DNA from: Bryobacterales bacterium
GTDB taxonomy: Bacteria > Acidobacteriota > Terriglobia > Bryobacterales > UBA6623
Length of the DNA stretch: 64,000 nucleotides
Reading direction: 5' to 3'
NCBI GenBank assembly: GCA_965219585.1
Contig: CBDCOA010000003.1
Coordinates: forward strand, 4,898,625-4,962,624
Shown one piece after another: positions 1,847 through 37,699 of this stretch (position 1 is the first letter of the stretch; every line of letters starts with the position of its first letter). Below the pieces are notes generated by a model that ran no database searches, was not told the DNA's origin, and worked only from the letters and a program-made list of their open reading frames with translations. The translations under genes and the position numbers were made by a program.

Positions 1847-3304
1847 GTGGGGAAACTTGCAGTGAAGTTTCACAGGGGGGCCGCGATGGTCGCCTTAGCC
1901 GCGCTGGTCCTCGCTCTGCTCTCGTCTCCCGATGCGGTTCAAGGACAGGCCGACCGACCCAATGTCCTCTTCATCGCGATCGATGATTTGAATGACTGGA
2001 CGGGCGCCCTTGAGGGCAACCCTCAGGCCCGGACGCCGCACATGGACAAACTGGCTTCCAAGGGCATGGTGTTCACCAATGCGCACTGCGCGGCTCCAGC
2101 TTGCGGTCCTTCAAGGTCTGCCCTTATGACTGGGATGCGCCCTTCGACGTCGGGTAATTACGTGAATCAAAATTCGTTCACAAAAAACCCCATCCTGAAT
2201 CGCTCGGTGCTCTTGACTGAGTTGTTGCAACAGAATGGCTACTATGTAGCCGGCTCCGGCAAGTTGTTTCACGGCGCTCATTTTAAGAATGAAGTACAGG
2301 GTCGGGGCTTTGATGACTATTACCCGAGTAAGACGCAGGACCTATTCCCGTTTATAGACAGATTCGCATCTCCGAGACCTCTCAATGGGATGACGAAGGG
2401 AGTCGCAAGATACGCCGACTGGGGCCCCTATGCTCCCGATGTCACCCTGGAGGATGTCAACGATGGGAAAACTGCGAAATGGGCGGCAGAGACATTGCTG
2501 GGAGGCGAGCTGAAAGAACCCTTTTTTGTAGGCGCCGGCATCTTCCAACCACATCTGCCCAACTACGCACTTCAGGAATATTTCGATCGATTCCCTCTGG
2601 ATGAGATAGAGATCCCGGAAGGCTACCTGGAAGATGACTTGGAAGATGTGCCTGCAGCGAGTTCAAAGCAGCGGCATATCGCGTGGGCCAAGGCGATCAG
2701 GGCTGCGGGTCAGTGGAAGCACGCCATTCAGGCTTACCTGGCGTCCAGTGCCATGACCGATGAGCTGATTGGTCAGATGGTCGGGGCGCTCGAGAAGTCA
2801 CAGTACGCCGACAATACGATTATTGTGTTGTGGAGCGACCATGGCTTTCAGCTGGGTGAAAAAGAACGTTGGGCAAAATATTCCCTCTGGGAAAGGGCCA
2901 CGCGGGTCAATATGATATGGGTGGCGCCGGGCGTGACCACGCCTGGCTCGACCACGGCCAAGCCGGCGAACCTGCTGGATATTTATCCGACCTTGGCCTC
3001 ACTGACCGCAATCGATCCGCCTGAGGGACAGCTGGAAGGGAACGACCTCTCTGTCTTGATGAAAGACCCTGACGCCGCCTGGGACAAAGTCTCTTTGACT
3101 ACCTTTGGCTTCAAGAATTACGGCGTTCGCTCCGAACGGTATCGATATATCGTGTACGAGGATGGCTCGGAAGAACTGTACGACCACCAAGTCGACAAGT
3201 GGGAATGGCACAACCTCGCGAATGATCCTGAATACGCGGCTATCAAAACCAAGATGCGCAGAGCGATCCCCACGCATCATGAACCCATCGGCGCTATGCA
3301 ATGA
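1847..3304 (+). CDS. sulfatase (formylglycine-dependent arylsulfatase family), secreted
   Basis: RPNVLFIAIDDL...HCAAPACGPSRSALMTGMRP contains the sulfatase C-x-P-x-R signature, and a later WSDHG motif is present. Signal peptide AMVALAALVLALLSSPDAVQG. GTG 1847 is preceded by AGGGAAGGGA; ATG 1886 is the alternative start. Confidence 0.85.
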   Translation: MGKLAVKFHRGAAMVALAALVLALLSSPDAVQGQADRPNVLFIAIDDLNDWTGALEGNPQARTPHMDKLASKGMVFTNAHCAAPACGPSRSALMTGMRPSTSGNYVNQNSFTKNPILNRSVLLTELLQQNGYYVAGSGKLFHGAHFKNEVQGRGFDDYYPSKTQDLFPFIDRFASPRPLNGMTKGVARYADWGPYAPDVTLEDVNDGKTAKWAAETLLGGELKEPFFVGAGIFQPHLPNYALQEYFDRFPLDEIEIPEGYLEDDLEDVPAASSKQRHIAWAKAIRAAGQWKHAIQAYLASSAMTDELIGQMVGALEKSQYADNTIIVLWSDHGFQLGEKERWAKYSLWERATRVNMIWVAPGVTTPGSTTAKPANLLDIYPTLASLTAIDPPEGQLEGNDLSVLMKDPDAAWDKVSLTTFGFKNYGVRSERYRYIVYEDGSEELYDHQVDKWEWHNLANDPEYAAIKTKMRRAIPTHHEPIGAMQ

Positions 3305-13262: not shown

Positions 13263-13718
13263 TCAGGGTTTCTTCTGCTCGCTGGACGGACGCGACTTGG
13301 CTTTGTCAGGATCGGATGCTTCGACGAACCCGTTCAGGATGCCGTTCATGAACCGCGTCGAAGCGTCGCCGTCGTAGCGCTTGCCGATCTCGAGAGTCTC
13401 GTTGATGACAATCGCGGGGTGCGTGTCGCCGCTGCGCAGTTCCGCCAGAGCCAGTCTCAGCAGGTGTCGCACGACAGGTTCGATGCGACTCGGCTGCCAG
13501 CGGTCGGCGCTGTGGCGCGCAATGATTGCGTCCAGCTCCGCAACGTTTTCGGCGGCCTCGCGAAACAGCCGCTCGGCAAAGGCATCCACCGGCTGGGGAT
13601 CATCGGACGCGAGGCGGCCGAAGAAGTCCGCAACGACCTGGTCCGGGTCCGCTCCCCCAGCGTCCCACTGGTAGATCATTTTCAGGGCGCACTCGCGGGA
13701 TCGGCGTCGGGAGAGCAT
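13263..13718 (-). CDS. nusB: transcription antitermination factor NusB
   Basis: 151 aa. Contains SRECALKMIYQWD...VVRHLLRLALAELR...PAIVINETLEIGKRY...FMNGILN. Lies downstream of ribH, the classic ribH-nusB arrangement. Confidence 0.9.
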   Translation of the reverse strand: MLSRRRSRECALKMIYQWDAGGADPDQVVADFFGRLASDDPQPVDAFAERLFREAAENVAELDAIIARHSADRWQPSRIEPVVRHLLRLALAELRSGDTHPAIVINETLEIGKRYDGDASTRFMNGILNGFVEASDPDKAKSRPSSEQKKP

Positions 13719-13742
13719 GGCGTAACGCTGTGGCCGCTGCGG

Positions 13743-14228
13743 TCAGATGGCGCGGATCGCGCTGAGCAAGTGGGCCATTTCGATGGCTGAGGCGGCGGCT
13801 TCGGCCCCGGCGTTGCGGCTCTTGGCTCCGGAGCGATCCATCGCCTGCTCGACGGTATCGCAGGTCAGCACGCCGAAGATGGTCGGCACGCCGGTCTCGG
13901 GTCCGACGCGCGCGATCTGGCTCACCGCCCCCGATGCCACGTGCTCGTAGTGCGAAGTCTCCCCGCGAATCACGGCTCCCAGGCAGATCAAGGCATCGAA
14001 ATTGCCGCTCTGCGCCAGGGCCCGGGCGGCGGTTGCCAACTCTAGCGAACCGGGCACGCGGGCCACGAACACCTTGTCCGCGTCGCCGCCGTGACGGCGG
14101 ATCGCGTCCAGCGCCCCTGCGAGCAGCCGGTCCGTGATGAAACTGTTGAAGCGCGACACGACGCAGCCCAAGCGCAGATCCGCTGCCTCGAGCCCGCCTT
14201 CCAGTTCCGTGAATCCTTCGCGCGACAT
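13743..14228 (-). CDS. ribH: 6,7-dimethyl-8-ribityllumazine synthase
   Basis: 161 aa. Contains VVSRFNSFITDRLLAGALDAIRRHG...VPGSLELA...FDALICLGAVIRGETSHYEHVA...GVPTIFGVLT. Confidence 0.9.
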   Translation of the reverse strand: MSREGFTELEGGLEAADLRLGCVVSRFNSFITDRLLAGALDAIRRHGGDADKVFVARVPGSLELATAARALAQSGNFDALICLGAVIRGETSHYEHVASGAVSQIARVGPETGVPTIFGVLTCDTVEQAMDRSGAKSRNAGAEAAASAIEMAHLLSAIRAI

Positions 14229-14285
14229 TGCAGGCGCAACTTCATCCTAGCCAATGGGGCGGCGTCGAGTTTCGACGCGACCGGC

Positions 14286-15341
14286 TCAGCGGCGCAGGGC
14301 TTCCGGCACCCGTGTGCGATCGTGCTGCTCGAATCGGACCGTCCATTCCAGGGGCACGGTCGTCGGCAGGTAGCAGACCTTGTCGTCGCATGCTTGGTAG
14401 CGCAGGCTCCCGCTAATCTTCAGCGCGCCGTCTTCGAGCAGATCGCCGACTTCGTTCGCTTGGCCGATCATGATGTCGCGCACTAGGCGGAACTTGCCCT
14501 CGTAGACGGGCACGCGCTCGTCGATCGCTGGAAGGTGCAGGGTCTTTGCGTCCGGAAACTCCGTGTCGTAGAGGGTCACGCCAGAGCCTTCGTCCATGGT
14601 CCAAGCGATGGGAATGTAGCCCTCGACCTCCGGCGCGTAGACGTGCATCTTGTCGTTGAGTTCGATGTCGAGCACCAGGGCGAATCGATTGCCGCCGCGC
14701 ACGGTCTCGTCGCTTGCCCAGCTGGTCAGCTTCAGGTGCGATGTCCGCTGCTGTGTCCGCGCGCCTCCCGCGTCGGAACCCAGTTGGCGGACCAAGATGC
14801 GGCCGGCAGTGAAGCGATCCCTGTAGTTTTCCTCGTGAAACTTTTCCGCCACGGTCCGGTCGGGATTCAGCAGGAGCTCGACCGGATGCGGGATGCCGTA
14901 GAACTGGTGCGTTTCCGGCACGTCCTCGTTCAGCACTCCGAAGGCGCGGATGATCTCGGAGTCGGGGTCGGAAAGCAGCGGGAATCCGATTCCGGCCCGC
15001 TCGGCGAAATTGCTCAGGGCCTCCCGCTTGTCGTAGCTAATGCCGGCGATGTTGACGCCGCTGGCTTCGAGGGCTTGGCGCTTGCGTTCCAGCTGCACGA
15101 GCTGGCCTTTGCAGAACGGTCACCAGTCCGCCGAGCGGAAAAACAGCAGCAGCAGCCCCTGCTCTCCCGTCAGGCTGGCGAAGTCGCGGGCGTTGCCCGA
15201 CTGGTCGATGGCCTCGAAGGCCGGGGCGGTCTCCCCGACTTCCGGGCCGGCTGCGATAGCTGAAGCCAGTGCGGACATAAGGAACAGTGACGCCGCCAGG
15301 CCAAAGGCCCAGTTGCGTCGGCGTGAGCCGGGTCGGAACAT
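14286..15341 (-). CDS. secreted redoxin (AhpC/TSA-like thioredoxin fold) fused to a DsbD-alpha-like domain; candidate selenoprotein with UGA (15122..15120) read as Sec in a U-P-F-C motif
   Basis: ORFs 15120..15341(-) and 14286..15098(-) are in one frame (1056 nt = 352 codons) split by a single TGA, reading LLLFFRSADW-TGA-PFCKGQLVQLERKRQALEASGV. N-terminal signal MFRPGSRRRNWAFGLAASLFLMSALASAIA. The C-terminal domain carries YQACDDKVCYLP. A hairpin starts 14 nt after the TGA. Confidence 0.65.
15089..15105 (-). promoter_or_regulatory. candidate bacterial SECIS upper stem-loop
   Basis: mRNA sequence CCAGCU-CGUGC-AGCUGG forms a perfect 6-bp stem with a 5-nt loop containing GU. It starts 14 nt 3' of the in-frame UGA. 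A possible 3-bp lower stem (UGC/GCA) lies across an internal loop. Confidence 0.5.
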
Positions 15342-15374: not shown

Positions 15375-15383
15375 CCCCCACTG
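15375..15383. repeat. target-site duplication of IS copy 1 (outer side), CCCCCACTG
   Basis: Identical 9-mer directly abuts the other end of the IS at 18127..18135. Confidence 0.85.
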
Positions 15384-18126
15384 CTAGCGACCGGACATTG
15401 TTGATGCTGGGAGATTGGAGACATTGGTGGGCTGATGCTCACATTCGGTTTAGATGATGCCGAATGGACTTTCCGGATACTTGAGGGCGAGAAGAGGCAG
15501 ACCGGCGCAGTGCGGCAGACGCAGGCATCTGGCAGCACCGGGTTGGGGCTGCCCGGCCAGCGTTGCCGTGCCGGTTATTGCGTTGCGCAGGGGTCCCATG
15601 CGGCCGTCACGCAATGGATGGGAACACGGATCACCGGCGACCATCGGACAGGCTTCGAGTTGCGCCAAGGAGCGGTTCCCGACGCGGCCCGCAGCAAGGC
15701 CGGCGAGAGGATTCCCGACCCACGACAGTGCATCCAGGAGAGCGTTCTGCACTCCTGCTGACGATCCCCTACGGCGGCCCCCGCAACGTCTGCCGGTAGC
15801 GCACCATCGTTTGCAGCTGCCGGTACGCCTGCCACAGCACTTCGTTGCCCGGCAGTTCCCGGTGTTTCTTCGGACGCCAGCCCCGCATGCGCGCCAGCAG
15901 CAGCACCCAACTGCGAATGCCCGCTCCCACCGGCTGGCCGCGTTCCCGCGGCGGTCGCAAGCGCTCCGCCTCCGTCACGGCCTCGATCACGGCCAGCTCG
16001 TCCGCCGTGAGCACCTCCTCCGCCGGCGTGTCCGGCGCGTCCCGCGCGTAGCGGTCCAAGCTGAACACTCTCCAGGCCGTGATCGCGTCGAACACCAAGC
16101 ACTTGCCCAGCGCCTCCGCGTCCCGCAAGCGCCGGTCCTCGATCCGCGTGCCGCTCTTGAGCAGCCGGAAATACTCCTCGATCGCCCAGCGCCGCTCGTA
16201 CCAGCCCACGATCCGCTCGGCCCACTGTGCTGTCGCCGCCCCCTCGCTGCACAGCAGCAGCCACTCCAAGCCATCTTCCCCGGCTGGCGGGTTCGGCTCC
16301 AGCACCCGCACCAGCCACACTGGCAACGGCTGCGCCTGCCCGGCCTGCCCCTGCGGCGGCAGCAACTCCACCCGGCCGATTCGGATCTCCGTCACTGCCG
16401 TGCGCTTCTCCCGCGCCCGCTGCCCCCCTTGCGAGTCGATCTCCACCTTGCGGCCACTCACCAGCACCTCTTCGAAGTCCGGCTGCGCCTCGATCGGCCG
16501 GATCATCTCCGCCGCGAACGCCGCGTCCCACACCCGTACCTTGCGCTGTCGCCCCAAGTGCACCCGCACCAGCAACCCGGCCTCCTGCCGACGTTCCGCC
16601 TGCTGTTCGAACAAACCGAAAATGTCGCTCTCGCGGTCGCCCACCACCACGACCCGCGTCTGCGGACTGCAGCGCCCCAGTTCCTGACCCTGCTCGAACC
16701 CCCGGAACCAGCGCTGGCTCTCCTTCTCGCGCTCCGCCTCCCGGCCCGGGTCCTGCAACGGCCGCGCCCACTGCTCCAGACCGCTCACCCCCAGCGGACG
16801 CCCGCCTGCGGTGAATCCCACCGCCGCGTGCACGAACAGCCCGCGCGCACTGCTGGCGCGGTCCTTTAACGGCCCCAACCCGCTCGTGCAATCCTTCAGC
16901 TGCGTGTAGTTCAGCGTCGTGGTGTCCTGCACCAGCAACACCGTCGACTCCACCTGCACCCGCTCCAGCAAGGCCTCCCGGTGCGGTTGCAGAATGTCCT
17001 TGTCGCTCACCCTGCCATTGTGCAGCAGGCGCGTCGCCGCCCGCAGGTCCGCCTCGTGCGGGAAGATCGCCGGCAGAGCCTCCCCCGGGTGCCGCTCCCA
17101 GCTCTGCCCCATCTGCTCCAGCCGCTGGCGCAAGCGCCCGTCCGGCAGGTCCGAACGCAGGTACTCCCGGCGCGCCCAGTTCGCCTCCTCCTCCAGCACC
17201 AGCTCCGGGTACTGCCCCAGCTTCCGCTGCGGCTGCTGGCTCAGCTTGGGCTGCCAGTCCGGCTCCAAACCGAGCAGCCAGACCGCCTTCGCCGCGCCCG
17301 CCGCGCCCGCTCCCGGCGGCTGCCCCTGCGTGTGTCCCACGCACTGCCAGCCGGCCGCCTTGTAACTCGTGCCCGGGCGCGCGCTGTCCACGCAGGTCTC
17401 CACCAGCCAAGGCTGCACTCCGTGCGCCTGTTGCCAGTCCCGGGCCAGCGCCCGGATGGCCCTGCCCAGCACGTGCGAGGCTAGGTGCGGCACCTGCACG
17501 CCCGGCACGAGCAGGAAGCGATCGTTGTTCAGGACCCGCTCGATGTGCGCTCCGCGCGTGCGCTCGTCCCACTGCAGGAAGGCATCGCGCGGCCCCAGCC
17601 GGAACGGCGCCGCCACGAACGAGAGCACGCCCAGCGGCCCGCACTCGGCGCTGAGCAGATAGCTCAGCCGACAGCCGGGCGCCCGGGCCGAGCCCAGCGG
17701 ATGGTGCTGGTCCAGCAGGGCGGCGCACTGCCGCCGCTGCTCGGCGGAACTGGCCAGACCCACGCGCACCTCGCCGAGTTCCTGCAGCGAGCCGCGGAAG
17801 CTGGCCGCTGGCAATGACGGGTCCGCGCTGAAGCGTGGGCCGCCGGCGGGCGGCCCCGGCTGGGCTGCCGGCAGCGGCAGGCCCAGTTGGGCGGCCAACT
17901 CGGGCAGCGCCTTGCGCGCCGAGGCCGTGCAATACTCGCCCTTGGGATTGCGCCAGTCGTCCTGCTCGCAGACCCCGCGCCCCAAGGCCGCCCGCGACAG
18001 CTGGCCCTGCAGCAAGGCCTCGCGCAGCCAAGTGATCGTCTTCGGACGGAAGATGCGGAGCCCTACCCGCACTACTCCCGTTCTACACAGAACACCGTGC
18101 CTGTGTCAAGTATGTCCAGTCGCTAG
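15384..18126 (-). mobile_element. IS4-family (Tn5/IS50-like) insertion sequence, copy 1, 2,743 bp
   Basis: Reverse complement of 30299..33041: coordinates of all twin ORFs sum to 48425 and their translations are identical. Imperfect terminal IRs are 15384 CTAGCGACCGGACATTGTTGA and, at 18126 (reverse complement), CTAGCGACTGGACATACTTGA. Flanked by a 9-bp direct repeat. Confidence 0.9.
15769..18072 (-). CDS. Tn5-like DDE transposase with N-terminal DUF4338-like extension (767 aa)
   Basis: Identical to the 30353..32656 product. Tn5-like blocks are LLVQDTTTLNY (D), VVVGDRESDIFGLF (D) and YERRWAIEEYFRLLKSG (E). Confidence 0.9.
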   Translation of the reverse strand: MRVGLRIFRPKTITWLREALLQGQLSRAALGRGVCEQDDWRNPKGEYCTASARKALPELAAQLGLPLPAAQPGPPAGGPRFSADPSLPAASFRGSLQELGEVRVGLASSAEQRRQCAALLDQHHPLGSARAPGCRLSYLLSAECGPLGVLSFVAAPFRLGPRDAFLQWDERTRGAHIERVLNNDRFLLVPGVQVPHLASHVLGRAIRALARDWQQAHGVQPWLVETCVDSARPGTSYKAAGWQCVGHTQGQPPGAGAAGAAKAVWLLGLEPDWQPKLSQQPQRKLGQYPELVLEEEANWARREYLRSDLPDGRLRQRLEQMGQSWERHPGEALPAIFPHEADLRAATRLLHNGRVSDKDILQPHREALLERVQVESTVLLVQDTTTLNYTQLKDCTSGLGPLKDRASSARGLFVHAAVGFTAGGRPLGVSGLEQWARPLQDPGREAEREKESQRWFRGFEQGQELGRCSPQTRVVVVGDRESDIFGLFEQQAERRQEAGLLVRVHLGRQRKVRVWDAAFAAEMIRPIEAQPDFEEVLVSGRKVEIDSQGGQRAREKRTAVTEIRIGRVELLPPQGQAGQAQPLPVWLVRVLEPNPPAGEDGLEWLLLCSEGAATAQWAERIVGWYERRWAIEEYFRLLKSGTRIEDRRLRDAEALGKCLVFDAITAWRVFSLDRYARDAPDTPAEEVLTADELAVIEAVTEAERLRPPRERGQPVGAGIRSWVLLLARMRGWRPKKHRELPGNEVLWQAYRQLQTMVRYRQTLRGPP

Positions 18127-18135
18127 CCCCCACTG
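18127..18135. repeat. target-site duplication of IS copy 1 (inner side), CCCCCACTG
   Basis: Matches 15375..15383 exactly. Confidence 0.85.
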
Positions 18136-20332: not shown

Positions 20333-20845
20333 ATGCTACCGCGCGGACAGCGCGCTGCGCCTCGGCCCGGCCTCCCGGGCTTGGCGCCGCTGGCAATCCT
20401 TGCCTTGGCCCTGTGGGCCGCTTGCGGCGGGCCGCCGCAAGCGGCCCCGGGCGGCTCGGAGCCGGCGCAGCTTCCGACCACGCAGGTCACTCTGCCTGAC
20501 GGGGCCCTGATCGAAGCCGAGCTGGCGATTTCGTCTGAAGAGCAGGCGCGCGGGCTGATGTTCCGCGCCGAGCTGCCTCCGGATCGCGGCATGCTGTTCG
20601 TCGGCAGCCGCTCGACCCAGCGTTCGTTCTGGATGTACCAGTGCCTGATCCCGCTGGACATCATCTGGATGGACGGCGCGCACCGCATTGTCGAGATCGT
20701 CCGCTCGGCGCCGCCTTGCGCCTCGACGAATCCGGGCGGTTGCCCCAGTTATGGAGGCAACGCCAACTCGGTCTACGTCCTGGAACTGGCTGCTGGCCAG
20801 TCCGACGCTCACGGGCTGAGTATTGGCGATCGGCTAGACTTCTAG
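20333..20845 (+). CDS. DUF192 domain protein, probable lipoprotein/secreted
   Basis: 170 aa. Signal with LAILALALWAACGG. The DUF192-like core is ARGLMFR..LPPDRGMLFV......FWMYQCLIPLDIIWMD...IVEI. Confidence 0.65.
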   Translation: MLPRGQRAAPRPGLPGLAPLAILALALWAACGGPPQAAPGGSEPAQLPTTQVTLPDGALIEAELAISSEEQARGLMFRAELPPDRGMLFVGSRSTQRSFWMYQCLIPLDIIWMDGAHRIVEIVRSAPPCASTNPGGCPSYGGNANSVYVLELAAGQSDAHGLSIGDRLDF

Positions 20846-20916
20846 ACGTAACCCTACTGGCAGGGATTCCGCCATCCTTTGTCAGGGGTTGGTGCGTCCG
20901 CTCGCCCCCGCAGACT

Positions 20917-22200
20917 ATGTCCAAGAAGCGCCTCATCGCCATCGTGTTCGGCATCGCGATCGTCTACCTGGTGGGCAGCAGGGTGTACGAGGCCAACCAG
21001 CTGGCGAACGCTCCGGCCAAGAAGAAGGCCGCAGGCCGCGTGGTCAACGTCGACGTGACCCAGGCCCGCATCGGCTCCATCCGCGAGGAGCTGCTGCTGA
21101 CGGGCTCGCTGAAGCCGAAAGAGACCGTCGATATCAACCCGAAGATCACCGGCCGCATCGAGAAGATCAACTTCTTGGTCGGCGACTGGATGGCGCAGGG
21201 CGCGGTTGTCGCAGAAATCGAAGTCGACGAGCTGGCGCAGCAGGTCAGGCGCTCGGAAGCGTCCTATTCGGTGAGCGAGGCCAACATTTCCGCCCGCAAG
21301 GCCGAGCTGGCCCGTGCCAAGGCGGACCTTGACCGCGCCAAGCTGCTGTTCGACGAAGATCTGCTCTCGCCCCAGGAATTCCAGCAGTCCCAGACTTCTC
21401 TGGAGGTGCTGGAGGCCCAGGTCGAACTCGCCGAGGCCCAGCTCGAACAATCCACCGCGGAACTGACCGAGCTGCGCATCCGACTTGAGCAGGCCAAGAT
21501 CTACGCGCCCATGAGCGGCTTGGTCTCGGCCCGCTACGTAGACCCGGGCGCGCTCGTGACCCCGGGCAGCCCGATCATCCAGATCGTGAACCTTTCGACG
21601 ATGGTCACGCGCGGCAACGTGCCCGAGCGGAACATCGACAAGCTGGCCGTCGGCAACACGGCGGCCGTGCACGTGGACGCTATCCCTGGGCAACAGTTCG
21701 AGGGACGCATCGCGCGCATCGCGCCGGTGCTTGACGCGGCCACCCGCAGCGCCATCATCGAGATCGACATCCGCAATCCCGAAGCCGTGCTCAAGGCCGA
21801 GATGTTCGCGCGCATCACTCTGGACTTGGGCTCGACCCGCGAGGCCACACTGATCCCGCGCGACGGCTTGGTCTATCGCGGCCAGCAGCCCGGCGTCTAC
21901 GTGGTCCCGGACGAGCAGGACCGGCCGGTCTTTCGCGTCATTGAGACGGGGCTCACGCGCGAGGGGCAGATCGAGGTCCTGGCGAACCTGGACGCTGGCA
22001 CGCGCATCGTCGGCCGCGGGGCGACCATGCTGCGGGATGGCGACCGCATTAGCACCGGCCCGGGCGGCGGCCGCGGTGGTGCTGGCCCAGGCGGTGGCGC
22101 TGATGCAGGCGGTGGCCGCGGTGGTGCTGGCGGGGGTGGCGGCGGCCCCGGCGGTGGTGCCGGCGCGGCCCAGAAGGCTGCCACCAAGAGCGCCAGCTAG
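20917..22200 (+). CDS. efflux RND transporter periplasmic adaptor (MFP) with Gly-rich C-terminal tail
   Basis: ATG 20917 lies within ORF 20641..22200. N-terminal anchor MSKKRLIAIVFGIAIVYLVG. Has a coiled-coil hairpin region (AELARAKADLDRAKLLFDEDLLSPQEF...) and beta-barrel motifs (IYAPMSGLVSARYVDPGALV). The tail is GPGGGRGGAGPGGGADAGGGRGGAGGGGGGPGGG. Confidence 0.85.
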   Translation: MSKKRLIAIVFGIAIVYLVGSRVYEANQLANAPAKKKAAGRVVNVDVTQARIGSIREELLLTGSLKPKETVDINPKITGRIEKINFLVGDWMAQGAVVAEIEVDELAQQVRRSEASYSVSEANISARKAELARAKADLDRAKLLFDEDLLSPQEFQQSQTSLEVLEAQVELAEAQLEQSTAELTELRIRLEQAKIYAPMSGLVSARYVDPGALVTPGSPIIQIVNLSTMVTRGNVPERNIDKLAVGNTAAVHVDAIPGQQFEGRIARIAPVLDAATRSAIIEIDIRNPEAVLKAEMFARITLDLGSTREATLIPRDGLVYRGQQPGVYVVPDEQDRPVFRVIETGLTREGQIEVLANLDAGTRIVGRGATMLRDGDRISTGPGGGRGGAGPGGGADAGGGRGGAGGGGGGPGGGAGAAQKAATKSAS

Positions 22201-22229: not shown

Positions 22230-22308
22230 CTCGGCGCAAACCCCGGTTGCGGCGGGACTTGCTCGGGCTCGCGAGCTTGGAGCGAGCTAAGATTGGGCAG
22301 GGTGAGTT

Positions 22309-25300
22309 GTGAACTTTAGTCTCTCGACCGCATCCATCCACCGCCCCGTAACCGTCTTGATGGCGTGCTTGGTCGCCATCCTGCTGGGGGCGGTTGCGTT
22401 CGTCAACATCCCCGTCGACTTGATGCCGGAGATCGTCTACCCGACGATCAGCGTCAGGGCCGAGTACGCCGGCGTGGCCCCCGAAGAGATGGAGACGCTG
22501 GTGGTGCGCCCGCTGGAGGAGGCCTTCTCATCGGCCCCGCACGTGGAGCGCATCTCCAGTTCCGTGTACGAGGGACTGTGCTACGTTCGCGTCGGTTTCG
22601 ACTACGGGGTCGACATCGACGAAGCGGCCAATGAGCTGCGCACTCGCCTGGACCGCAGGCGCCGCTACTTGCCGGAGGACATGGATCCGCCGAGCATGTA
22701 CAAGTACGATTCCTCGCAGTATCCCATCATGTACCTAGCGGTTTCGGCCCGCGAGATGGGGCCGAAGGACCTGCGGCACTACGTCGAAAAACAGATCCAG
22801 CCGCGCCTCGAGCGAGTTCCCGGGATCGCCGCGTTCACGGTGCGCGGAGGGCTGCGCCGCGAGATCCACGTCGACCTGGATCTGAAGAAGCTGCGGGCGC
22901 TCGACCTGTCCATCCCGCACGTGGTCCAGATCTTGCGCCAGGAGAACATGAACCGCCCGGTCGGCCCGGTCGACGAGGGCCGCTTCGAAGTGCTGCTCCG
23001 CACGCGCGGCGAATTCCAGAGCTTGGAGGAGATTCGCGACGTCGTGTTGACCACGCGCAATAACGTGCCCGTGCATGTGCGGGACATCGCCACGGTTCAC
23101 GACAGTCACGAGGACATCGACTATCTGGTGAGCGTGGACGGCGAGCCCGGCGTGCGCATGTACGTCTACAAGCAGGCCGGGGCGAACACGGTCGAGGTCT
23201 CGGACGCCTTGTGGGTCGAGGTGGATCGCATCCACGAGGCCTTCCCCAATATCCGCATCGAGAAGACCCGCGACAGCGCCGACTTCATTCGCGCCTCGAT
23301 CGCCAACGTGCGCGGCGCCATGCTGCAGGGCGCCGGACTCGCGGTCGTGGTGCTGCTGTTCTTTCTGCGCAGCGTGTCGAGCACCCTGATCATCGGCATC
23401 GCGATCCCGATTTCAGTCATCGCCACGTTCGCGCTGATGTTCTTCAACGGGTTCACGCTCAACACCGTCTCGTTCGGCGGGCTGGCGCTGGGCGTCGGCA
23501 TGCTGGTCGACAACGCGATCGTGGTGCTGGAGAACGTCTACCGCCACCGCGAGGGAGGCAAGGCTCCGCTGGATGCGGCGGTCGAAGGCAGCCGCGAGGT
23601 CTCGATGGCGATTACCGCCTCCACGCTGACGACTGTGGCGGTCTTCGTGCCGGTGCTGTTCGTCGGGGGCATCGCCGCTCAGACCTTCAAGCAGCTCGCG
23701 TACGTGGTCAGCTTCGCGCTGCTGTGCTCGCTGGCGGTCGCGCTGATGGTGGTTCCGGGCTTGTGTGCGAAGTTGGCCAGCCGCCGCGGGCCGGGCGCGC
23801 AGGTCACCCAGATCAGCGATATGGCGCGCACCTGGCAGCGCAACATGGCCGCCGCATACGGCGGATCGCTGCAGTGGTCGCTCAACCACAAGGCCCCGGT
23901 AGTCGTGGTGGCGGCGCTGCTGTTCGCCGTGGCGGTCTACTTGATGCCGTATCTCGGCGTCGAATTGCAGCCGGAAGTTGATGAGGGCGAGGTCCGTGTC
24001 AGCGTCGAGCTCGAGCCCGGCACGCGGGTCGAGGTCACCGACAGCGTGATGCAGCACCTGCGCGCGGTCGCGATGGAGACCGCGCCGGAAATCACCACGG
24101 CCATGGTGACGGCCGGCGGGAGCTCCCGCAGCAGCGGATCGGGCGCCCATCTCGGCGAATTGCGCCTCAATCTCGTTCCAAAGACCGAGCGCAGCCGGTC
24201 GGCCCGCGATGTGGCCAACGAGCTGCGCGGGGCCTTGCAGATCCAGCCGGGCATGCTGGTCAGGACGCGCGTCTCGGGCGGCATGTTCAGGAGCCGGGGC
24301 AGCGATTCCGACGACGACCGCCTTTCGGTGGAGATCCGCGGGCACAACATGGACACGGCGGCCCAGCTGGCCGAGACGATCCGCGAGACCATGGAGCGCA
24401 CCCCGGGAATCGCCGAGCCTACGATCAGCCAGCGCCCCGGCATGCCGGAAATGCTGGTCGAGGTCGACCGCATGCGCGCTTCCAACATGGGCCTCAACGT
24501 GTCCGAGATCGCCCTCACGCTGGAAACGGCGATCGGCGGCGCTCGCAGTTCGATGTACCGCAAGGAGGGCGACGAGTACAACATCCTAGTGCGCCTGCGG
24601 CAGGAGGATCGCCTGGATCTTGACAACGTGGGGCGCATCCCCCTGACCACCCCGCTCGGTACGACCATCACGGCCGGAAGCGTGATCGAACTCCGGCGGC
24701 AGGAAGGCCCGACCTACATCAGCAGGGTGAACCAAGAGCGGCGGATGTTCGTCTCCGGAGCGCTGGCGGACCGGGACCTGGGCAGCATCGTCAACGATCT
24801 GGCGACCGAGTTCCGGGGGATGGCAATGCCCGAGGGGTTCTCGATCGAGTACGGCGGCGAGTACGAGGAACAGCAGGAGACCTTCCGCAACCTGTTCTTC
24901 GCGTCCATTCTGGCCCTGGTCTTGGTGTACATGGTGATGGCGGCGCAGTTCGAATCGCTCAAGGACCCCTTCCTGATCCTGTTTTCCGTGCCGCTGGCGG
25001 CCATCGGTGTCGTGCTGGTGCTCCTGCTCACCGAGACAACCTTCAACCAGCAGGCGTTCCTGGGCTTGATCGTGCTGCTCGGCATCGTGGTCAACAACGC
25101 CATCGTGCTGGTGGACTACACCAACCTGCTGCGCCGCGAGCACGGCTTGGGCCTGTACCGGGCCGCGGTGACCGCCGGCATGCGGCGGATGCGGCCGATC
25201 CTGATGACGACCATCACAACCGTGCTGGGCCTGGCTCCGATGGCGCTAGGGCTGGGCGAGGGTTCGGAATTGCAAGCTCCGATGGCGCGCGTGGTGATCG

Positions 25301-25434
25301 GCGGGCTGGCGACGTCCACGGTGATCACGCTGGTATTCATTCCGGTGATGTATGTCGCCTTCGAGGAACTGTTCTACCGGGGGCGGGTCGCTCAGCCGAC
25401 CATGCGCGCAGCCGAGTCCGTTGCGGGCGACTGA
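22309..25434 (+). CDS. efflux RND transporter permease subunit (AcrB/MdtB-like), paralog 1
   Basis: 1041 aa with a GTG start. N-terminus SIHRPVTVLMACLVAILLGAVAFVNIPVDLMPE. Twelve-TM RND layout with conserved GMLVDNAIVVLENV and VVNNAIVLVDY. Confidence 0.9.
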   Translation: MNFSLSTASIHRPVTVLMACLVAILLGAVAFVNIPVDLMPEIVYPTISVRAEYAGVAPEEMETLVVRPLEEAFSSAPHVERISSSVYEGLCYVRVGFDYGVDIDEAANELRTRLDRRRRYLPEDMDPPSMYKYDSSQYPIMYLAVSAREMGPKDLRHYVEKQIQPRLERVPGIAAFTVRGGLRREIHVDLDLKKLRALDLSIPHVVQILRQENMNRPVGPVDEGRFEVLLRTRGEFQSLEEIRDVVLTTRNNVPVHVRDIATVHDSHEDIDYLVSVDGEPGVRMYVYKQAGANTVEVSDALWVEVDRIHEAFPNIRIEKTRDSADFIRASIANVRGAMLQGAGLAVVVLLFFLRSVSSTLIIGIAIPISVIATFALMFFNGFTLNTVSFGGLALGVGMLVDNAIVVLENVYRHREGGKAPLDAAVEGSREVSMAITASTLTTVAVFVPVLFVGGIAAQTFKQLAYVVSFALLCSLAVALMVVPGLCAKLASRRGPGAQVTQISDMARTWQRNMAAAYGGSLQWSLNHKAPVVVVAALLFAVAVYLMPYLGVELQPEVDEGEVRVSVELEPGTRVEVTDSVMQHLRAVAMETAPEITTAMVTAGGSSRSSGSGAHLGELRLNLVPKTERSRSARDVANELRGALQIQPGMLVRTRVSGGMFRSRGSDSDDDRLSVEIRGHNMDTAAQLAETIRETMERTPGIAEPTISQRPGMPEMLVEVDRMRASNMGLNVSEIALTLETAIGGARSSMYRKEGDEYNILVRLRQEDRLDLDNVGRIPLTTPLGTTITAGSVIELRRQEGPTYISRVNQERRMFVSGALADRDLGSIVNDLATEFRGMAMPEGFSIEYGGEYEEQQETFRNLFFASILALVLVYMVMAAQFESLKDPFLILFSVPLAAIGVVLVLLLTETTFNQQAFLGLIVLLGIVVNNAIVLVDYTNLLRREHGLGLYRAAVTAGMRRMRPILMTTITTVLGLAPMALGLGEGSELQAPMARVVIGGLATSTVITLVFIPVMYVAFEELFYRGRVAQPTMRAAESVAGD

Positions 25435-25554
25435 TTCGTTCGCCCGTAACCCGATGCCACCAAAGCCGCGCCATATACATAGTTGGAGACACCGGCTGTC
25501 CCGTGGCGCGCCCCGGGGGGTGCGGGTTGCGGCTAGCCTCGCGAGGTGTGACGA

Positions 25555-28500
25555 ATGAGCCTTCCTGAGTTTTCGATCAAGCGACCGGTCACGGTGCTGA
25601 TGGCGGTGATGGTCTGCCTCCTGCTCGGCTTCATCGCATTCACCGAGATCCCGGTGGATCTGATGCCGGAGGTCAACTATCCGACCCTGAGCGTCACCAC
25701 CGACTACGAGGGCGTGGGTCCCGAGGAGATCGAGACGCTCATCAGTCGTCCCCTCGAGCAGATTGTCTCAGCGGCCCCTGGCGTCGAGCGCGTCACCTCG
25801 ACTTCCAGCGAAGGCCGCTCCTCGGTGCGCATCGAGTTCGTCTTCGGCACGGACATCGAAGTTGCGGCGGACGAGGTGCGCTCGCGCTTGGACCGGGGGC
25901 GCCGCACGCTGCCGGACGACATCGAGCCGCCCACGATCTTCAAGTTCGATGTGACCCAGTTCCCGATCATGTTTCTCACGGTGGCCACCGACGAGATGGA
26001 CCCGCGCGAGCTGCGGATGTTCACCGAGAAGAACATCCTGTATCGCTTCGAGCGCATCAAGGGCGTCGGCCAGGTGCGCGTCGGCGGCGGCCTGCGCCGC
26101 GAGATTCACATCGACCTGAACCTGGAAAAGCTACGCGCCCTCGATCTGTCGGTGGCGCAAGTGGTCAATACGGTGCGGGACGAGAACCTCAACCGCCCGG
26201 TGGGCCCGGTCAAGGAGGGCCGCTTCGACGTCCTGCTGCGCACCAGCGGCGAATTCAACAACGTCAACCAGCTGCTCGATGTGGCCTTGGCTTCCCGCGC
26301 CGGTGTCCCCGTGTATGTGCGCGACATCGCGGAGGTCGACGACTCGCACCCGGACATCCGCCACTACGTGGGCGTGAACGGCTCTCAGGCGCTCCGCCTG
26401 ATCATGTTCAAGCAGTCCGGTTCCAACACGGTCAAGGTCTCTGAGGGGATTTGGGAAGAAATCGCCGAGATTCATCGCGACTATCCGCACATCAGGATCG
26501 ACAAGACCATGGACACCGCGGATTTCATCAACGCCGCGATCCGCAATGTCGAGGCCGCCGCCGCCGTGGGCGCGGTGCTCGCGGTGTTCGTGCTGCTGCT
26601 GTTCCTGCGCAGCCTGTCCAGCACCTTGATCATCGGTGCGGCGATACCGATTTCGGTTGTCTCGACCTTTGCCCTGATGTACTTCAACGGCTTCACCCTC
26701 AACATCGTCTCCTTCGGCGGGCTGGCCCTAGGCGTGGGCATGCTCGTCGACAACGCGATCGTGGTGTTGGAGAACATCTACCGCCATCGCGAGGAGGGCA
26801 CCGAGTCGCGGCAGGCCGCGCTCGTCGGCAGCCGCGAGGTGGGCATGGCGATCACGGCATCCACGCTGACCACGATCGCCGTCTTCGTGCCGGTAATGTT
26901 CATCGGCGGCTACGCTGCGCAGACCTTCCAGCAACTGGCGTATGTGGTCAGCTTTTCGCTGCTGTGCTCGCTGGTCGTGGCGCTGACGGTCGTGCCCGCC
27001 CTGTGCTCGCGGCGCACGGGCACCGCTAGCGGCGGCGGGATCCGCATCCTGCGCTACGCCGAGCAGGTCATGGTCGCGCTGTCTCGGAACTATTCCGAGA
27101 TTATCCGCTGGTCGCTGGCAAACCGCCTGGTGGTGACGGGATTGGCCGCTGGGCTGTTTGTTTGCGCGATCTGGCTGACCGGCTATGTCGGCGTCGAACT
27201 GGAACCGCAGGTCGACGAGGGCCAGATCCGCATCAACCTGGAATCCGAGCCCGGAACGCGAGCGGAGGTGACGAAGGAGATCGTCGATCAAATGGAGGCG
27301 ATCATCATGCGCGACGTCCCCGAGATCGAATACATCATGACCGAGGCCGGCAGCGACAGCCCCTTCCGCTCGATCGCCACCCACATCGGCGAACTGCGCA
27401 TCACCTTGGTCGACCAGAGCCAGCGCGACCGCACGGCCCGCGAGATCACCAACATGCTCAGGCCCAAGCTGATGGCCGTGGCGCCGGGCGTGCAGCTGCG
27501 CACGCGCATTTCCAGCGGCAACTTCGGACGGCGGCGCGGCGGCGGCGATGGTGCCGACGACCGCCTGCAGGTCACGATTCGCGGCTACGACCCGGACACT
27601 ACCGCTAACCTCGCCCTGCAGGTGCGCGACGCCATGCTGTCGGTCGACGGCGTGGAGGAGGCACAGATCAGCCGCCGGCCCGGCACTCCCGAGATGCTGG
27701 TCCGCGTCGACAGGCTCAAGGCTGCCAGCGTGGGCATGTCGGTAGCGGAGGTCGCAGCTACTCTCGAGACCGCCGTGGGCGGGCGCCGCTCGACCTTCTA
27801 TCGCGAGCAGGGCGACGAGTACGACATCGTGGTGCGCCTGCGCGAGGAGGACCGCCTGCAACTCGACCAGGTTGGGCGCATCCCTCTGCGCACGCCGCAA
27901 GGGAATCTCATCTACGCCAACGACGTCGTTCGCCTGAATCGCCAGGAGGGCCCGGTCGAGATCAACCGCGTCGACCAGGAGCGCATCGTCTATGTCTCGG
28001 GCACGATCGGTGATCGCAACTTGGGCGCCATCATTGCGGACTTGCGCGGCGAGGTCGCCCAGATCAACCGGCCCGACGGCTACGAGATCCGCTTCGGCGG
28101 CGAGTGGGAGGACCAGCAGGAGTCCTTCCGGGAGCTGACGTTCGCGGGCATCCTGGCGCTGCTGCTGGTCTACATGGTCATGGCGGCGCAGTTCGAGTCG
28201 CTGCGCGACCCGTTCATCATCTTGTTCTCGATCCCGCTGGCGGCCATTGGCGTTGTCACCATGCTCGTGATCACGGAGACCACCTTCAACATGCAGGGGT
28301 TCCTCGGCGTGATTGTGCTGGTGGGCATTGTCGTCAACAACGCGATCGTGCTCATCGACTACACGAACCAACTGCGCCGCGACCACGGGTACGGCATCAT
28401 GGATTCCGTCATCACGGCCGGCGGCCGCCGGCTGCGGCCGATCATGATGACCACGATCACGACCATCCTGGGCCTCACGCCGATGGCGCTCGGCCTGGGC

Positions 28501-28686
28501 GAGGGGTCGGAGCTGCAAGTGCCGATGGCGCGCGTGGTGATCGGCGGGCTGCTGACCTCCACGCTCATCACCCTCGTGTTCATCCCGGTGGTGTACGCCA
28601 CGTTGGAGGAGTTCGCCGAAAAGCTGGCGGGGCGTCGCCGGCGGGGCGTCGTGTCTGAGCCTTTGCAGCCTGCGGAGGGCGATTAA
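25555..28686 (+). CDS. efflux RND transporter permease subunit, paralog 2
   Basis: 1043 aa. Collinear with paralog 1 (SIKRPVTVLMAVMVCLLLGFIAFTEIPVDLMPE; GMLVDNAIVVLENI; VVNNAIVLIDY). Confidence 0.9.
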   Translation: MSLPEFSIKRPVTVLMAVMVCLLLGFIAFTEIPVDLMPEVNYPTLSVTTDYEGVGPEEIETLISRPLEQIVSAAPGVERVTSTSSEGRSSVRIEFVFGTDIEVAADEVRSRLDRGRRTLPDDIEPPTIFKFDVTQFPIMFLTVATDEMDPRELRMFTEKNILYRFERIKGVGQVRVGGGLRREIHIDLNLEKLRALDLSVAQVVNTVRDENLNRPVGPVKEGRFDVLLRTSGEFNNVNQLLDVALASRAGVPVYVRDIAEVDDSHPDIRHYVGVNGSQALRLIMFKQSGSNTVKVSEGIWEEIAEIHRDYPHIRIDKTMDTADFINAAIRNVEAAAAVGAVLAVFVLLLFLRSLSSTLIIGAAIPISVVSTFALMYFNGFTLNIVSFGGLALGVGMLVDNAIVVLENIYRHREEGTESRQAALVGSREVGMAITASTLTTIAVFVPVMFIGGYAAQTFQQLAYVVSFSLLCSLVVALTVVPALCSRRTGTASGGGIRILRYAEQVMVALSRNYSEIIRWSLANRLVVTGLAAGLFVCAIWLTGYVGVELEPQVDEGQIRINLESEPGTRAEVTKEIVDQMEAIIMRDVPEIEYIMTEAGSDSPFRSIATHIGELRITLVDQSQRDRTAREITNMLRPKLMAVAPGVQLRTRISSGNFGRRRGGGDGADDRLQVTIRGYDPDTTANLALQVRDAMLSVDGVEEAQISRRPGTPEMLVRVDRLKAASVGMSVAEVAATLETAVGGRRSTFYREQGDEYDIVVRLREEDRLQLDQVGRIPLRTPQGNLIYANDVVRLNRQEGPVEINRVDQERIVYVSGTIGDRNLGAIIADLRGEVAQINRPDGYEIRFGGEWEDQQESFRELTFAGILALLLVYMVMAAQFESLRDPFIILFSIPLAAIGVVTMLVITETTFNMQGFLGVIVLVGIVVNNAIVLIDYTNQLRRDHGYGIMDSVITAGGRRLRPIMMTTITTILGLTPMALGLGEGSELQVPMARVVIGGLLTSTLITLVFIPVVYATLEEFAEKLAGRRRRGVVSEPLQPAEGD

Positions 28687-30288: not shown

Positions 30289-30298
30289 GTGGTTTTGC
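30289..30298. repeat. target-site duplication of IS copy 2 (inner side), GTGGTTTTGC
   Basis: Identical 10-mer abuts the other IS end at 33042..33051. This is 9 bp plus one possibly fortuitous base. Confidence 0.8.
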
Positions 30299-30315
30299 CT
30301 AGCGACTGGACATAC

Positions 30316-30345
30316 TTGACACAGGCACGGTGTTCTGTGTAGAAC
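30316..30345 (+). promoter_or_regulatory. candidate transposase promoter inside the left IS end (mirror site in copy 1 at 18080..18109, minus strand)
   Basis: Perfect -35 TTGACA (30316-30321), an 18-nt spacer, then TAGAAC (30340-30345). GTG 30353 lies 7 nt after the -10, so the mRNA would be near-leaderless. Confidence 0.3.
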
Positions 30346-30352
30346 GGGAGTA

Positions 30353-32656: not shown

Positions 32657-33041
32657 GGGATCGTCAGCAGGAGTGCAGAACGCTCTCCTGGATGCACTGT
32701 CGTGGGTCGGGAATCCTCTCGCCGGCCTTGCTGCGGGCCGCGTCGGGAACCGCTCCTTGGCGCAACTCGAAGCCTGTCCGATGGTCGCCGGTGATCCGTG
32801 TTCCCATCCATTGCGTGACGGCCGCATGGGACCCCTGCGCAACGCAATAACCGGCACGGCAACGCTGGCCGGGCAGCCCCAACCCGGTGCTGCCAGATGC
32901 CTGCGTCTGCCGCACTGCGCCGGTCTGCCTCTTCTCGCCCTCAAGTATCCGGAAAGTCCATTCGGCATCATCTAAACCGAATGTGAGCATCAGCCCACCA
33001 ATGTCTCCAATCTCCCAGCATCAACAATGTCCGGTCGCTAG

Positions 33042-33051
33042 GTGGTTTTGC
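33042..33051. repeat. target-site duplication of IS copy 2 (outer side), GTGGTTTTGC
   Basis: Matches 30289..30298. Confidence 0.8.

Positions 33052-36511: not shown

Positions 36512-37699
<1,188 letters not shown>

Follow-up and report, generated by a model that had tools for sequence, protein, structure and literature searches.

A 64,000-nt stretch of the genome of a Bryobacterales bacterium (Acidobacteriota; assembly GCA_965219585.1, contig CBDCOA010000003.1, positions 4,898,625 to 4,962,624), hereafter termed the window, carries on its minus strand a gene interrupted by one in-frame TGA. We consider it very probable that this is a single gene for an exported selenoprotein of 351 residues, in which UGA codon 74, decoded through a selenocysteine insertion sequence (SECIS), supplies the selenocysteine (Sec, U) of a UxxC redox motif in a peroxiredoxin (Prx)-like domain; this domain is fused to a DsbD-alpha-like domain, and the two likely form a two-centre relay in the cell envelope. 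The gene is an unannotated orthologue of a published selenoprotein and is therefore already known; our finding is the correct call of a known selenoprotein gene, not a new kind of system.

Translation of minus-strand positions 15341..14286 gives one frame of 352 codons (1056 nt) whose sole internal stop is the TGA at 15122..15120. The open reading frames (ORFs) 15120..15341(-) and 14286..15098(-) are both present in the ORF list of the window, and the coordinates, shared frame and single TGA that an initial annotation of this DNA had proposed were all verified by these means. The residues before the stop are GEQGLLLLFFRSADW, and around it the translation reads ...FFRSADW*PFCKGQLVQLERK..., with the motif W-[TGA]-P-F-C. 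The TGA is codon 74 (15120..15122) and would place Sec at position 1 of a W-U-P-F-C redox motif, where Cys77 (TGC, 15111..15113) would be the resolving partner of Sec74 in UxxC and corresponds to the BCP/PrxQ peroxidatic Cys. The full read-through coding sequence (CDS; 14286..15341, 351 residues plus terminator) ends with another TGA at 14286..14288. Gene callers divide it into a 73-aa ORF and a 270-aa ORF; relatives found by tblastn align to query residues 1-351, straight across the TGA.

The published relative is a selenoprotein of Solibacter usitatus Ellin6076, listed by Zhang, Romero and Gladyshev (2006; PMC1794560, Additional file 4) under ‘Prx-like thiol:disulfide oxidoreductase’; the protein has 343 aa and reads MRSIV...FYRSADWUPYCKTQLVELE...LRYQACDDKKCYTPETVPLEW... 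(PMC1794560). It is 45% identical to the window protein, collinear with it over 327 residues, and has Sec at the same position. The two share the signal peptide, the RSADW-U-P-[FY]-C motif, the hairpin-encoding QLVEL peptide downstream of Sec and the C-terminal domain with YQACDDKxCY; they differ in host, since the window organism belongs, judged by the nearest loci, to a marine or sponge-type Bryobacterales lineage. Unlike the window protein, the published members from Geobacter and Rubrobacter (PMC1794560) have no DsbD-alpha-like domain. The same supplements list SelA, SelB and two FdhA proteins with U for Solibacter usitatus, and according to Table 2 of the paper Acidobacteria have 3 selenoprotein families (PMC1794560). 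A 2026 review still describes the Prx-like family as ‘predicted with high confidence’, and in the literature on this family we found no discussion of the redoxin/DsbD-alpha-like fusion.

Comparative evidence on the in-frame TGA

A genome scan with one genome per species yielded 80 loci (of at least 512), nearly all of them in metagenome-assembled genomes (MAGs) of Acidobacteriota. They come from Bryobacterales, Terriglobia and Vicinamibacterales, the nearest being from sponge-associated and marine bins, and the proteins of the orthologous loci are 37–99% identical to the window protein. The motif RSADW-x-xxC is present in 78 loci, with TGA as the variable codon in 70 and TGC or TGT in 8, so that this column is Cys in some homologues and TGA in most, a mixture of the two codons such as the initial annotation had proposed to look for. 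Cys77 is invariant, although the search pattern for the motif, matched by 78 of 81 loci, itself demands it. The TGA is shared by loci of which 53 differ in DNA over the 45 nt that follow it. Full-length homologues in the protein database (340–380 residues, 50–59% identity) have WC(P/G/I)(F/Y)C in the TGA column (WCPFC, WCPYC and similar), and in one case the two forms, 59% identical, share a single syntenic slot (L084 with Sec, L085/L086 with Cys).

Within this orthologous group the Sec form thus outnumbers the Cys form by about 9:1. In selenoprotein families the Cys forms usually dominate, the opposite of what is seen here.

The upstream frame is open in all Sec loci but L050. The 42 residues ahead of the TGA, 50–100% identical to those of relatives, are conserved at least as well as the 277 after it, with identities in distant loci of 50–60% ahead of the codon and 37–44% beyond it. 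Ratios of nonsynonymous to synonymous substitution (dN/dS, Nei-Gojobori) are well below 1 on both sides; the comparison with locus L009 gives 0.079/1.017 for the upstream part and 0.138/0.835 for the downstream part. Both flanks of the TGA are under purifying selection in one frame, and the downstream decay in TGA-bearing relatives that would have marked a pseudogene was not seen, the sequence being intact and selected on either side. In L050 (approximately 2780-3045, OZ253507.1) a single frameshift puts the N-terminal part out of frame with the TGA and the remainder; the locus is a genuine pseudogene, or else its long-read assembly is in error.

These data bear on the simplest alternative, that the TGA is a true stop, separating two genes (for a 73-aa peptide and for a 270-aa protein starting at GTG 15098) or marking a pseudogene created by a nonsense mutation. 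The databases speak for it at face value: close homologues (58–92% identity) are entered nearly all as proteins of 270 residues, with 77% query coverage and a GTG start after the TGA, and gene callers list the 73-aa ORF separately. However, a 270-aa product would start partway through thioredoxin-fold helix 1 and miss the entire active site, the Cys homologues are continuous, and GTG 15098, taken as the start, encodes the Val of the SECIS loop described below. Moreover, 70 genomes have kept the TGA together with its frame and the peptide upstream, at the low dN/dS just given, with a frameshift in only 1 of the 70 Sec loci (L050). We regard a true stop as extremely improbable.

Still less credence is due to a sequencing or assembly error that turned TGC or TGT into TGA, a possibility so slight as to be negligible. 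Nothing speaks for it beyond the general prior that attaches to any lone in-frame stop. Locus L081, from an independent assembly (Logan SRR33343648), is identical to the window gene at 1056/1056 nt, TGA included; L001 (99% identical) has the TGA too, as do 68 more genomes, which stem from many projects and were sequenced with many technologies. The presence of the same TGA in an independent assembly, which also answers the suggestion of the initial annotation that other sequence data be consulted, excludes sequencing error, and together with the conservation of TGA and frame and the evidence of selection it is our ground for excluding a pseudogene and a pair of genes as well.

Genome-wide reassignment of TGA was considered and ruled out, because TGA is an ordinary terminator of these genes: it ends the window gene, and the terminators of the 70 Sec loci are TGA in 35, TAG in 26 and TAA in 9.

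The putative SECIS hairpin

The stem-loop that would serve as SECIS (CCAGCU / CGUGC / AGCUGG) lies at 15089..15105(-), 14 nt (15119..15106) after the UGA; in the window, CCAGCUCGUGCAGCUGG forms a perfect 6-bp stem with the loop CGUGC. It is the comparison of related sequences that takes this hairpin far beyond chance. Every one of the 70 Sec loci has a stem-loop in the same columns, 18 to 34 when the U of UGA is column 1. In an alignment of 53 distinct Sec sequences, on which the covariation results below are based, 95.1% of stem cells are paired, against 14–46% when the 3′ partners are slid by 1–3 columns, and 0 of 500 column shuffles matched the observed pairing or covariation score.

Compensatory changes of the kind that the initial annotation had envisaged maintain the pairing. 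The closing pair 18-34 is G-C in 26 sequences and C-G in 25, and pair 21-31 is G-C in 39 and A-U in 12. The wobble base of a Gln codon stands in column 21 and the first base of a Leu codon (CUG/UUG) in column 31; because both sites are synonymous, selection at the protein level cannot explain their covariation. No variation is seen at the synonymous sites G30 and G33 or at G25 of the loop, and U26 is conserved in at least 90% of the sequences.

Judged by the pairing that their sequences allow, the hairpin decays in the Cys forms. Sec loci keep 5–7 of the 7 stem pairs and the eight Cys loci 3–6 (counts for the Cys forms 3, 4, 3, 5, 3, 6, 4, 5 and 3), and the loop Val (GUN) codon is replaced by Ala in half of the Cys loci. 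At the shared syntenic slot, the Sec form L084 retains 6/7 pairs against 3/7 for the Cys forms L085/L086.

The bacterial SECIS (bSECIS) model (PMC13188914, Fig. 2 legend) has a loop of 3–9 nt, an upper stem of 4–16 bp and a minimum free energy (MFE) of −7.5 kcal/mol or lower; it also calls for a G at loop position one or two, with G or U as the usual next base, and puts the loop 16–37 nt from the UGA (PMC13188914). The window hairpin agrees with all four constraints of the model. Its loop is C-G-U-G-C, the distance from UGA to loop is 20 nt (21 nt in the 7-bp form found in orthologues), and the MFE of the 42-nt stretch from the UGA onward is −10.7 kcal/mol, that of the bare 17-mer −7.4. Val82 is encoded by the loop GUG (15098..15096), the very codon from which the 270-aa gene call begins, and the GTG start at 15098 is a false start.

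Like the minimal SECIS of Escherichia coli fdhF and the bSECIS consensus, the window element is a stem-loop within the CDS just past the UGA, with a small apical loop in which a G is followed by U. It differs from them in that it is without a bulged U and its lower stem is not conserved: the UGC/GCA pairing at the base of the window hairpin is not kept among orthologues. From the analogy to fdhF, joined to the covariation, SECIS-dependent decoding by SelB appears well supported, and on the sequence evidence as a whole the in-frame TGA almost certainly encodes selenocysteine.

Active site and domain architecture

Residues 1-31 (15249..15341; all features of the gene are on the minus strand) form a putative signal peptide, recognized by sequence inspection from a basic RRR n-region, a hydrophobic core and the small residues ASA/IAA. 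The N-terminus, MFRPGSRRRNWAFGLAASLFLMSALASAIAA, resembles by eye a Sec-type (secretory) signal peptide, and the N-termini of the homologues are all hydrophobic and variable in sequence. A Pfam search with the protein, Cys being substituted for the stop, gave two domains above their gathering scores: AhpC-TSA (PF00578; Prx-like, thioredoxin-fold) at residues 35-166 (14844..15239; E 8.1e-27, 94.1 bits, cut-off 26) and a DsbD_N (alpha)-like domain (PF11412) at residues 217-328 (14358..14693; E 1.8e-9, 38.1 bits, cut-off 25). The redoxin fold and the DsbD-alpha-like domain that the initial annotation had recognized past the stop were thus both recovered. The latter domain holds a second redox motif, Y-Q-A-C318-D-D-K-V-C323-Y-L-P (14373..14390), with a C-x4-C pair.

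In a HMMER alignment to Xanthomonas BCP, Sec falls on the Thr of the Prx motif PxxxTxxC and Cys77 on the peroxidatic Cys (TPGC), the Prx Pro being Ser here. The active site is for this reason best described as a thioredoxin-like UxxC and not as that of a canonical peroxiredoxin; the sequence S-A-D-W-U-P-F-C departs from the true-peroxiredoxin PxxxTxxC by Pro to Ser and Thr to Sec. The initial annotation, which put the stop exactly on the redox-active Cys, was right in that the codon stands at the first position of UxxC, but this is not the peroxidatic Cys, since it aligns with the Prx Thr. Among NCBIfam peroxidase models the highest score is 66.6 bits, below the model's cut-off of 140. Sec-containing peroxiredoxins (PF00578, TxxU) have the same Pfam family and fold as the window protein; in them, however, Sec replaces the peroxidatic Cys, whereas the window protein has Sec in place of Thr, as SxxxUxxC. 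The active site of the Prx-like family has been described as thioredoxin-like (PMC1088965). The SelL-related and ResA-like WAxxUGC selenoproteins (NCBIfam NF040769 and NF041054) are distant redoxin-fold relatives that likewise have Sec in a CxxC-like motif, but the window protein scores only 46.8 and 25.6 bits against their cut-offs of 120 and 300, and both motif and architecture differ.

An AlphaFold (AF2) model of a 58%-identical Cys homologue, P0034 (pLDDT 90.7, pTM 0.83), has a low-confidence N-terminal helix, a disordered linker and a thioredoxin-fold domain followed by an all-beta domain, with pLDDT above 90. Foldseek places the first domain on BCP (BcpB, Bcp), PrxQ, AhpE and ResA, with TM-scores to the target of 0.7–0.8; the 50 matches listed are filled by those to the N-terminal domain, and nDsbD is not among them. 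For the C-terminal domain, phmmer found no match among PDB sequences. Its motif is strongly conserved, with Y315, Q316, A317, C318, D319, D320, C323, Y324 and P326 invariant in 47 homologues, and hhalign sets C318/C323 on YQGC-ADAGF-CYPP of E. coli DsbD-alpha, a short and weak alignment (probability 13%) to an approximate E. coli sequence.

Among the close known systems are also DsbD (DipZ), with its periplasmic alpha and gamma domains, and the ScsB/CcdA-type envelope reducing systems, which similarly combine a thioredoxin fold of the xCxxC type with a domain bearing a YQxC...CYxP pair, there immunoglobulin-like, on one exported polypeptide. Unlike DsbD, the window protein is without the membrane (beta) domain, has the redoxin first, in reversed order, and spaces its second Cys pair by x4 where DsbD has x5; its redoxin is Prx-like, not DsbD-gamma-like, and uses Sec. 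No central transmembrane (beta) domain was found in the protein by Pfam, and no CcdA gene adjoins the locus in five genomic contexts.

Decoding machinery, genomic context and implications

Several results weigh against the selenoprotein interpretation and have to be set beside the evidence above. Taken singly, the window sequence is no more stable than its dinucleotide shuffles over 66 nt (z = +1.3) or over the 42-nt stretch (z = 0.1), the bare 17-mer reaching z = −2.2, and the window lineage has a weaker variant of the hairpin, with 6 bp, a 5-nt loop and the seventh pair missing, where most orthologues have 7 bp and a 3-nt loop. Rfam at the gathering threshold gave no match anywhere in the 64-kb window. 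The family is without an NCBIfam model of its own, and no NCBIfam model reaches its cut-off. ARAGORN found no tRNA of any kind in the 64-kb window, hence no tRNA-Sec, and no tRNA-Sec in 60 loci; tblastn with approximate E. coli SelA, SelB and SelD sequences found none of the three in the window or the 80 loci. In five genomic contexts no gene for a redox partner (CcdA, DsbD-beta or a reductase) stands beside the gene. Finally, a copy of an insertion sequence (IS) sits 33 nt upstream of its start codon.

The first of these results qualifies an argument of the initial annotation, which held that a random nonsense mutation would hardly fall just in front of such a hairpin. The hairpin is there as described, but in the single sequence it is unremarkable: a comparable perfect 6-bp hairpin follows 8–20 nt downstream at about 3.3% of window positions, and behind 27/708 same-strand TGA triplets. 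Because such hairpins are common in this G+C-rich window (66% G+C), the argument is suggestive and not decisive, and the weight passes to the comparison among relatives. The Rfam blank is not evidence against a SECIS, because bacterial SECIS elements are too short and diverse.

From the lack of SelA, SelB and SelD matches we conclude that the sel genes are unlinked to the selenoprotein gene. The SelB query matched only EF-Tu (window 36554-37534) and, in L077, a CysN/CysC-like gene. Among Bryobacteraceae MAGs SelA is common, and the best 120 matches to the Solibacter query each reach an identity of 72% or more. A scan of the window for other genes with in-frame TGA returned only the ribH stop followed by the in-frame nusB, a trivial false positive; the scan is a weak negative, since its thresholds also missed the known case.

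Where the sel genes are out of sight, one must also ask whether the UGA is recoded to something other than Sec, either to Cys through a selC* tRNA-Cys and a SelB paralogue or to another residue through an acidobacterial allo-tRNA, the hairpin acting as recruiter in the same way. A selC* tRNA-Cys with UCA anticodon beside a second selB has been published for some bacteria, and Sec and Cys at a SECIS-dependent UGA are indistinguishable by sequence, with no Sec machinery in the window or the loci searched. Yet selC* is known from Firmicutes, Thermodesulfobacteria, Nitrospirae and Proteobacteria, not from Acidobacteria; canonical SelA and SelB, along with Sec-containing FdhA, occur in Solibacter, a relative at the level of the order, and SelA is widespread in Bryobacteraceae. 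A TGC codon is moreover the cheaper route to Cys, as 8 lineages show. The keeping of TGA and SECIS in 90% of loci therefore points to a benefit specific to Sec, and recoding to another residue seems to us very unlikely. We infer that Sec is inserted in this organism.

The IS element is present in two inverted copies of 2743 nt that are 100% identical, at 15384-18126 and 30299-33041, with the ends CTAGCGAC.../...GTCGCTAG and a 778-aa ORF matching DruA, Tnp_DNA_bind and, weakly, DDE_Tnp_1. Copy 1 is flanked by a 9-bp target duplication, CCCCCACTG, at 15375-15383 and 18127-18135, and copy 2 by another of 9 bp, TGGTTTTGC, at 30290-30298 and 33043-33051. A composite transposon is ruled out by the separate target duplication at each copy; for the same reason the two insertions are independent, and since the copies are 100% identical they are recent. 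The empty site survives in L081; there the intergenic DNA between the selenoprotein gene and a divergent E1 dehydrogenase gene measures 205 nt.

Copy 1 may have severed the gene from its promoter in this genome, and a selenoprotein gene by descent could here be silenced or mis-regulated. The position of the IS between the gene and the native promoter region, 33 nt from the start codon, and its recent arrival, with an uninterrupted allele in L081, make this conceivable. Against it, the CDS is identical at 1056/1056 nt to that uninterrupted allele and so shows no decay, outward promoters are frequent at IS ends, and the downstream ribH and nusB, essential-type genes on the same strand, presumably still have to be transcribed, if possibly from a promoter of their own. 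We judge silencing unlikely, though less so than the other alternatives discussed, and retain the reading of an intact selenoprotein gene.

In the window lineage the selenoprotein gene stands upstream of ribH and nusB and divergent from the E1 dehydrogenase gene. ribH (lumazine synthase; 13743-14246, minus strand) comes next after it, and nusB (13263-13742, minus strand) follows in frame with the ribH stop TGA at 13745..13743. Elsewhere the neighbourhood is different: in L084 (4212-5626, Sec) and L085/L086 (4638-5950, Cys) the orthologue lies directly downstream, on the same strand, of genes for an extracytoplasmic function (ECF) sigma factor and an NrsF-type anti-sigma factor. This arrangement, set in a conserved his-operon/dksA neighbourhood and absent from the window lineage, suggests control of the orthologue by envelope stress.

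Two further observations concern neighbouring genes. In 2 of the 8 Cys-form loci a tRNA-Cys(GCA) gene lies approximately 1.3 kb downstream (L039 5212-5284, L041 5277-5349), which is probably coincidence. Between the IS copies of the window, tandem ORFs at 22306-25434 and 25552-28686 (about 1043 aa each, 72–81% DNA identity) are, from synteny with L082, a paralogue pair of RND (ACR_tran) efflux pumps, placed after an HlyD-type membrane-fusion gene at 20539-22200.

A mechanism can be proposed on these grounds. SelB carrying Sec-tRNA(Sec) would bind the 17-nt stem-loop, be brought to the ribosome and compete with release factor 2 at UGA74. In the product, U74-x-x-C77 would act as the selenenylsulfide/selenol-thiol couple of the redoxin domain, and the C318-x4-C323 pair of the DsbD-alpha-like domain may, by analogy with DsbD, exchange electrons with it in the cell envelope; the Sec redoxin domain would then reduce an oxidized envelope substrate or a peroxide. 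The alpha domain of DsbD serves as electron donor to clients with a thioredoxin fold; the window protein would join a counterpart of such a client, the Sec redoxin, to an alpha-like domain on one chain, without the membrane domain. Because no redox-partner gene is linked, this relay rests on the DsbD analogy; that the protein is exported, which way its electrons run and what it reduces are put forward as presumptive.

A wider proposal, which we offer only tentatively, is that an Acidobacteriota-typical subfamily with UxxC and DsbD-alpha-like domains forms a self-contained, exported, selenium-dependent envelope redox module, in which the alpha-like domain docks on the Sec redoxin and recycles it without the DsbD membrane partner; some lineages would have it under ECF sigma/NrsF control, and an advantage of selenium would keep Sec in about 90% of lineages. 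This role is undescribed, the literature only grouping the Solibacter sequence as ‘Prx-like’.

The finding matters first for annotation. Public calls of this group are nearly all 270-residue fragments that start from the Val codon of the SECIS loop and miss the active site, because no NCBIfam model captures the family; through these truncated calls and the missing model, acidobacterial selenoproteomes, those of sponge and soil MAGs included, are undercounted. The group also makes a clean natural data set relating SECIS hairpin to codon choice, with 70 Sec and 8 Cys forms and covariation at synonymous sites, so that its value lies in annotation quality and in a neat example of SECIS covariation. 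For the biology of the organisms it means a lineage that spends selenium on a redox protein which, to judge from its N-terminus, would be exported.

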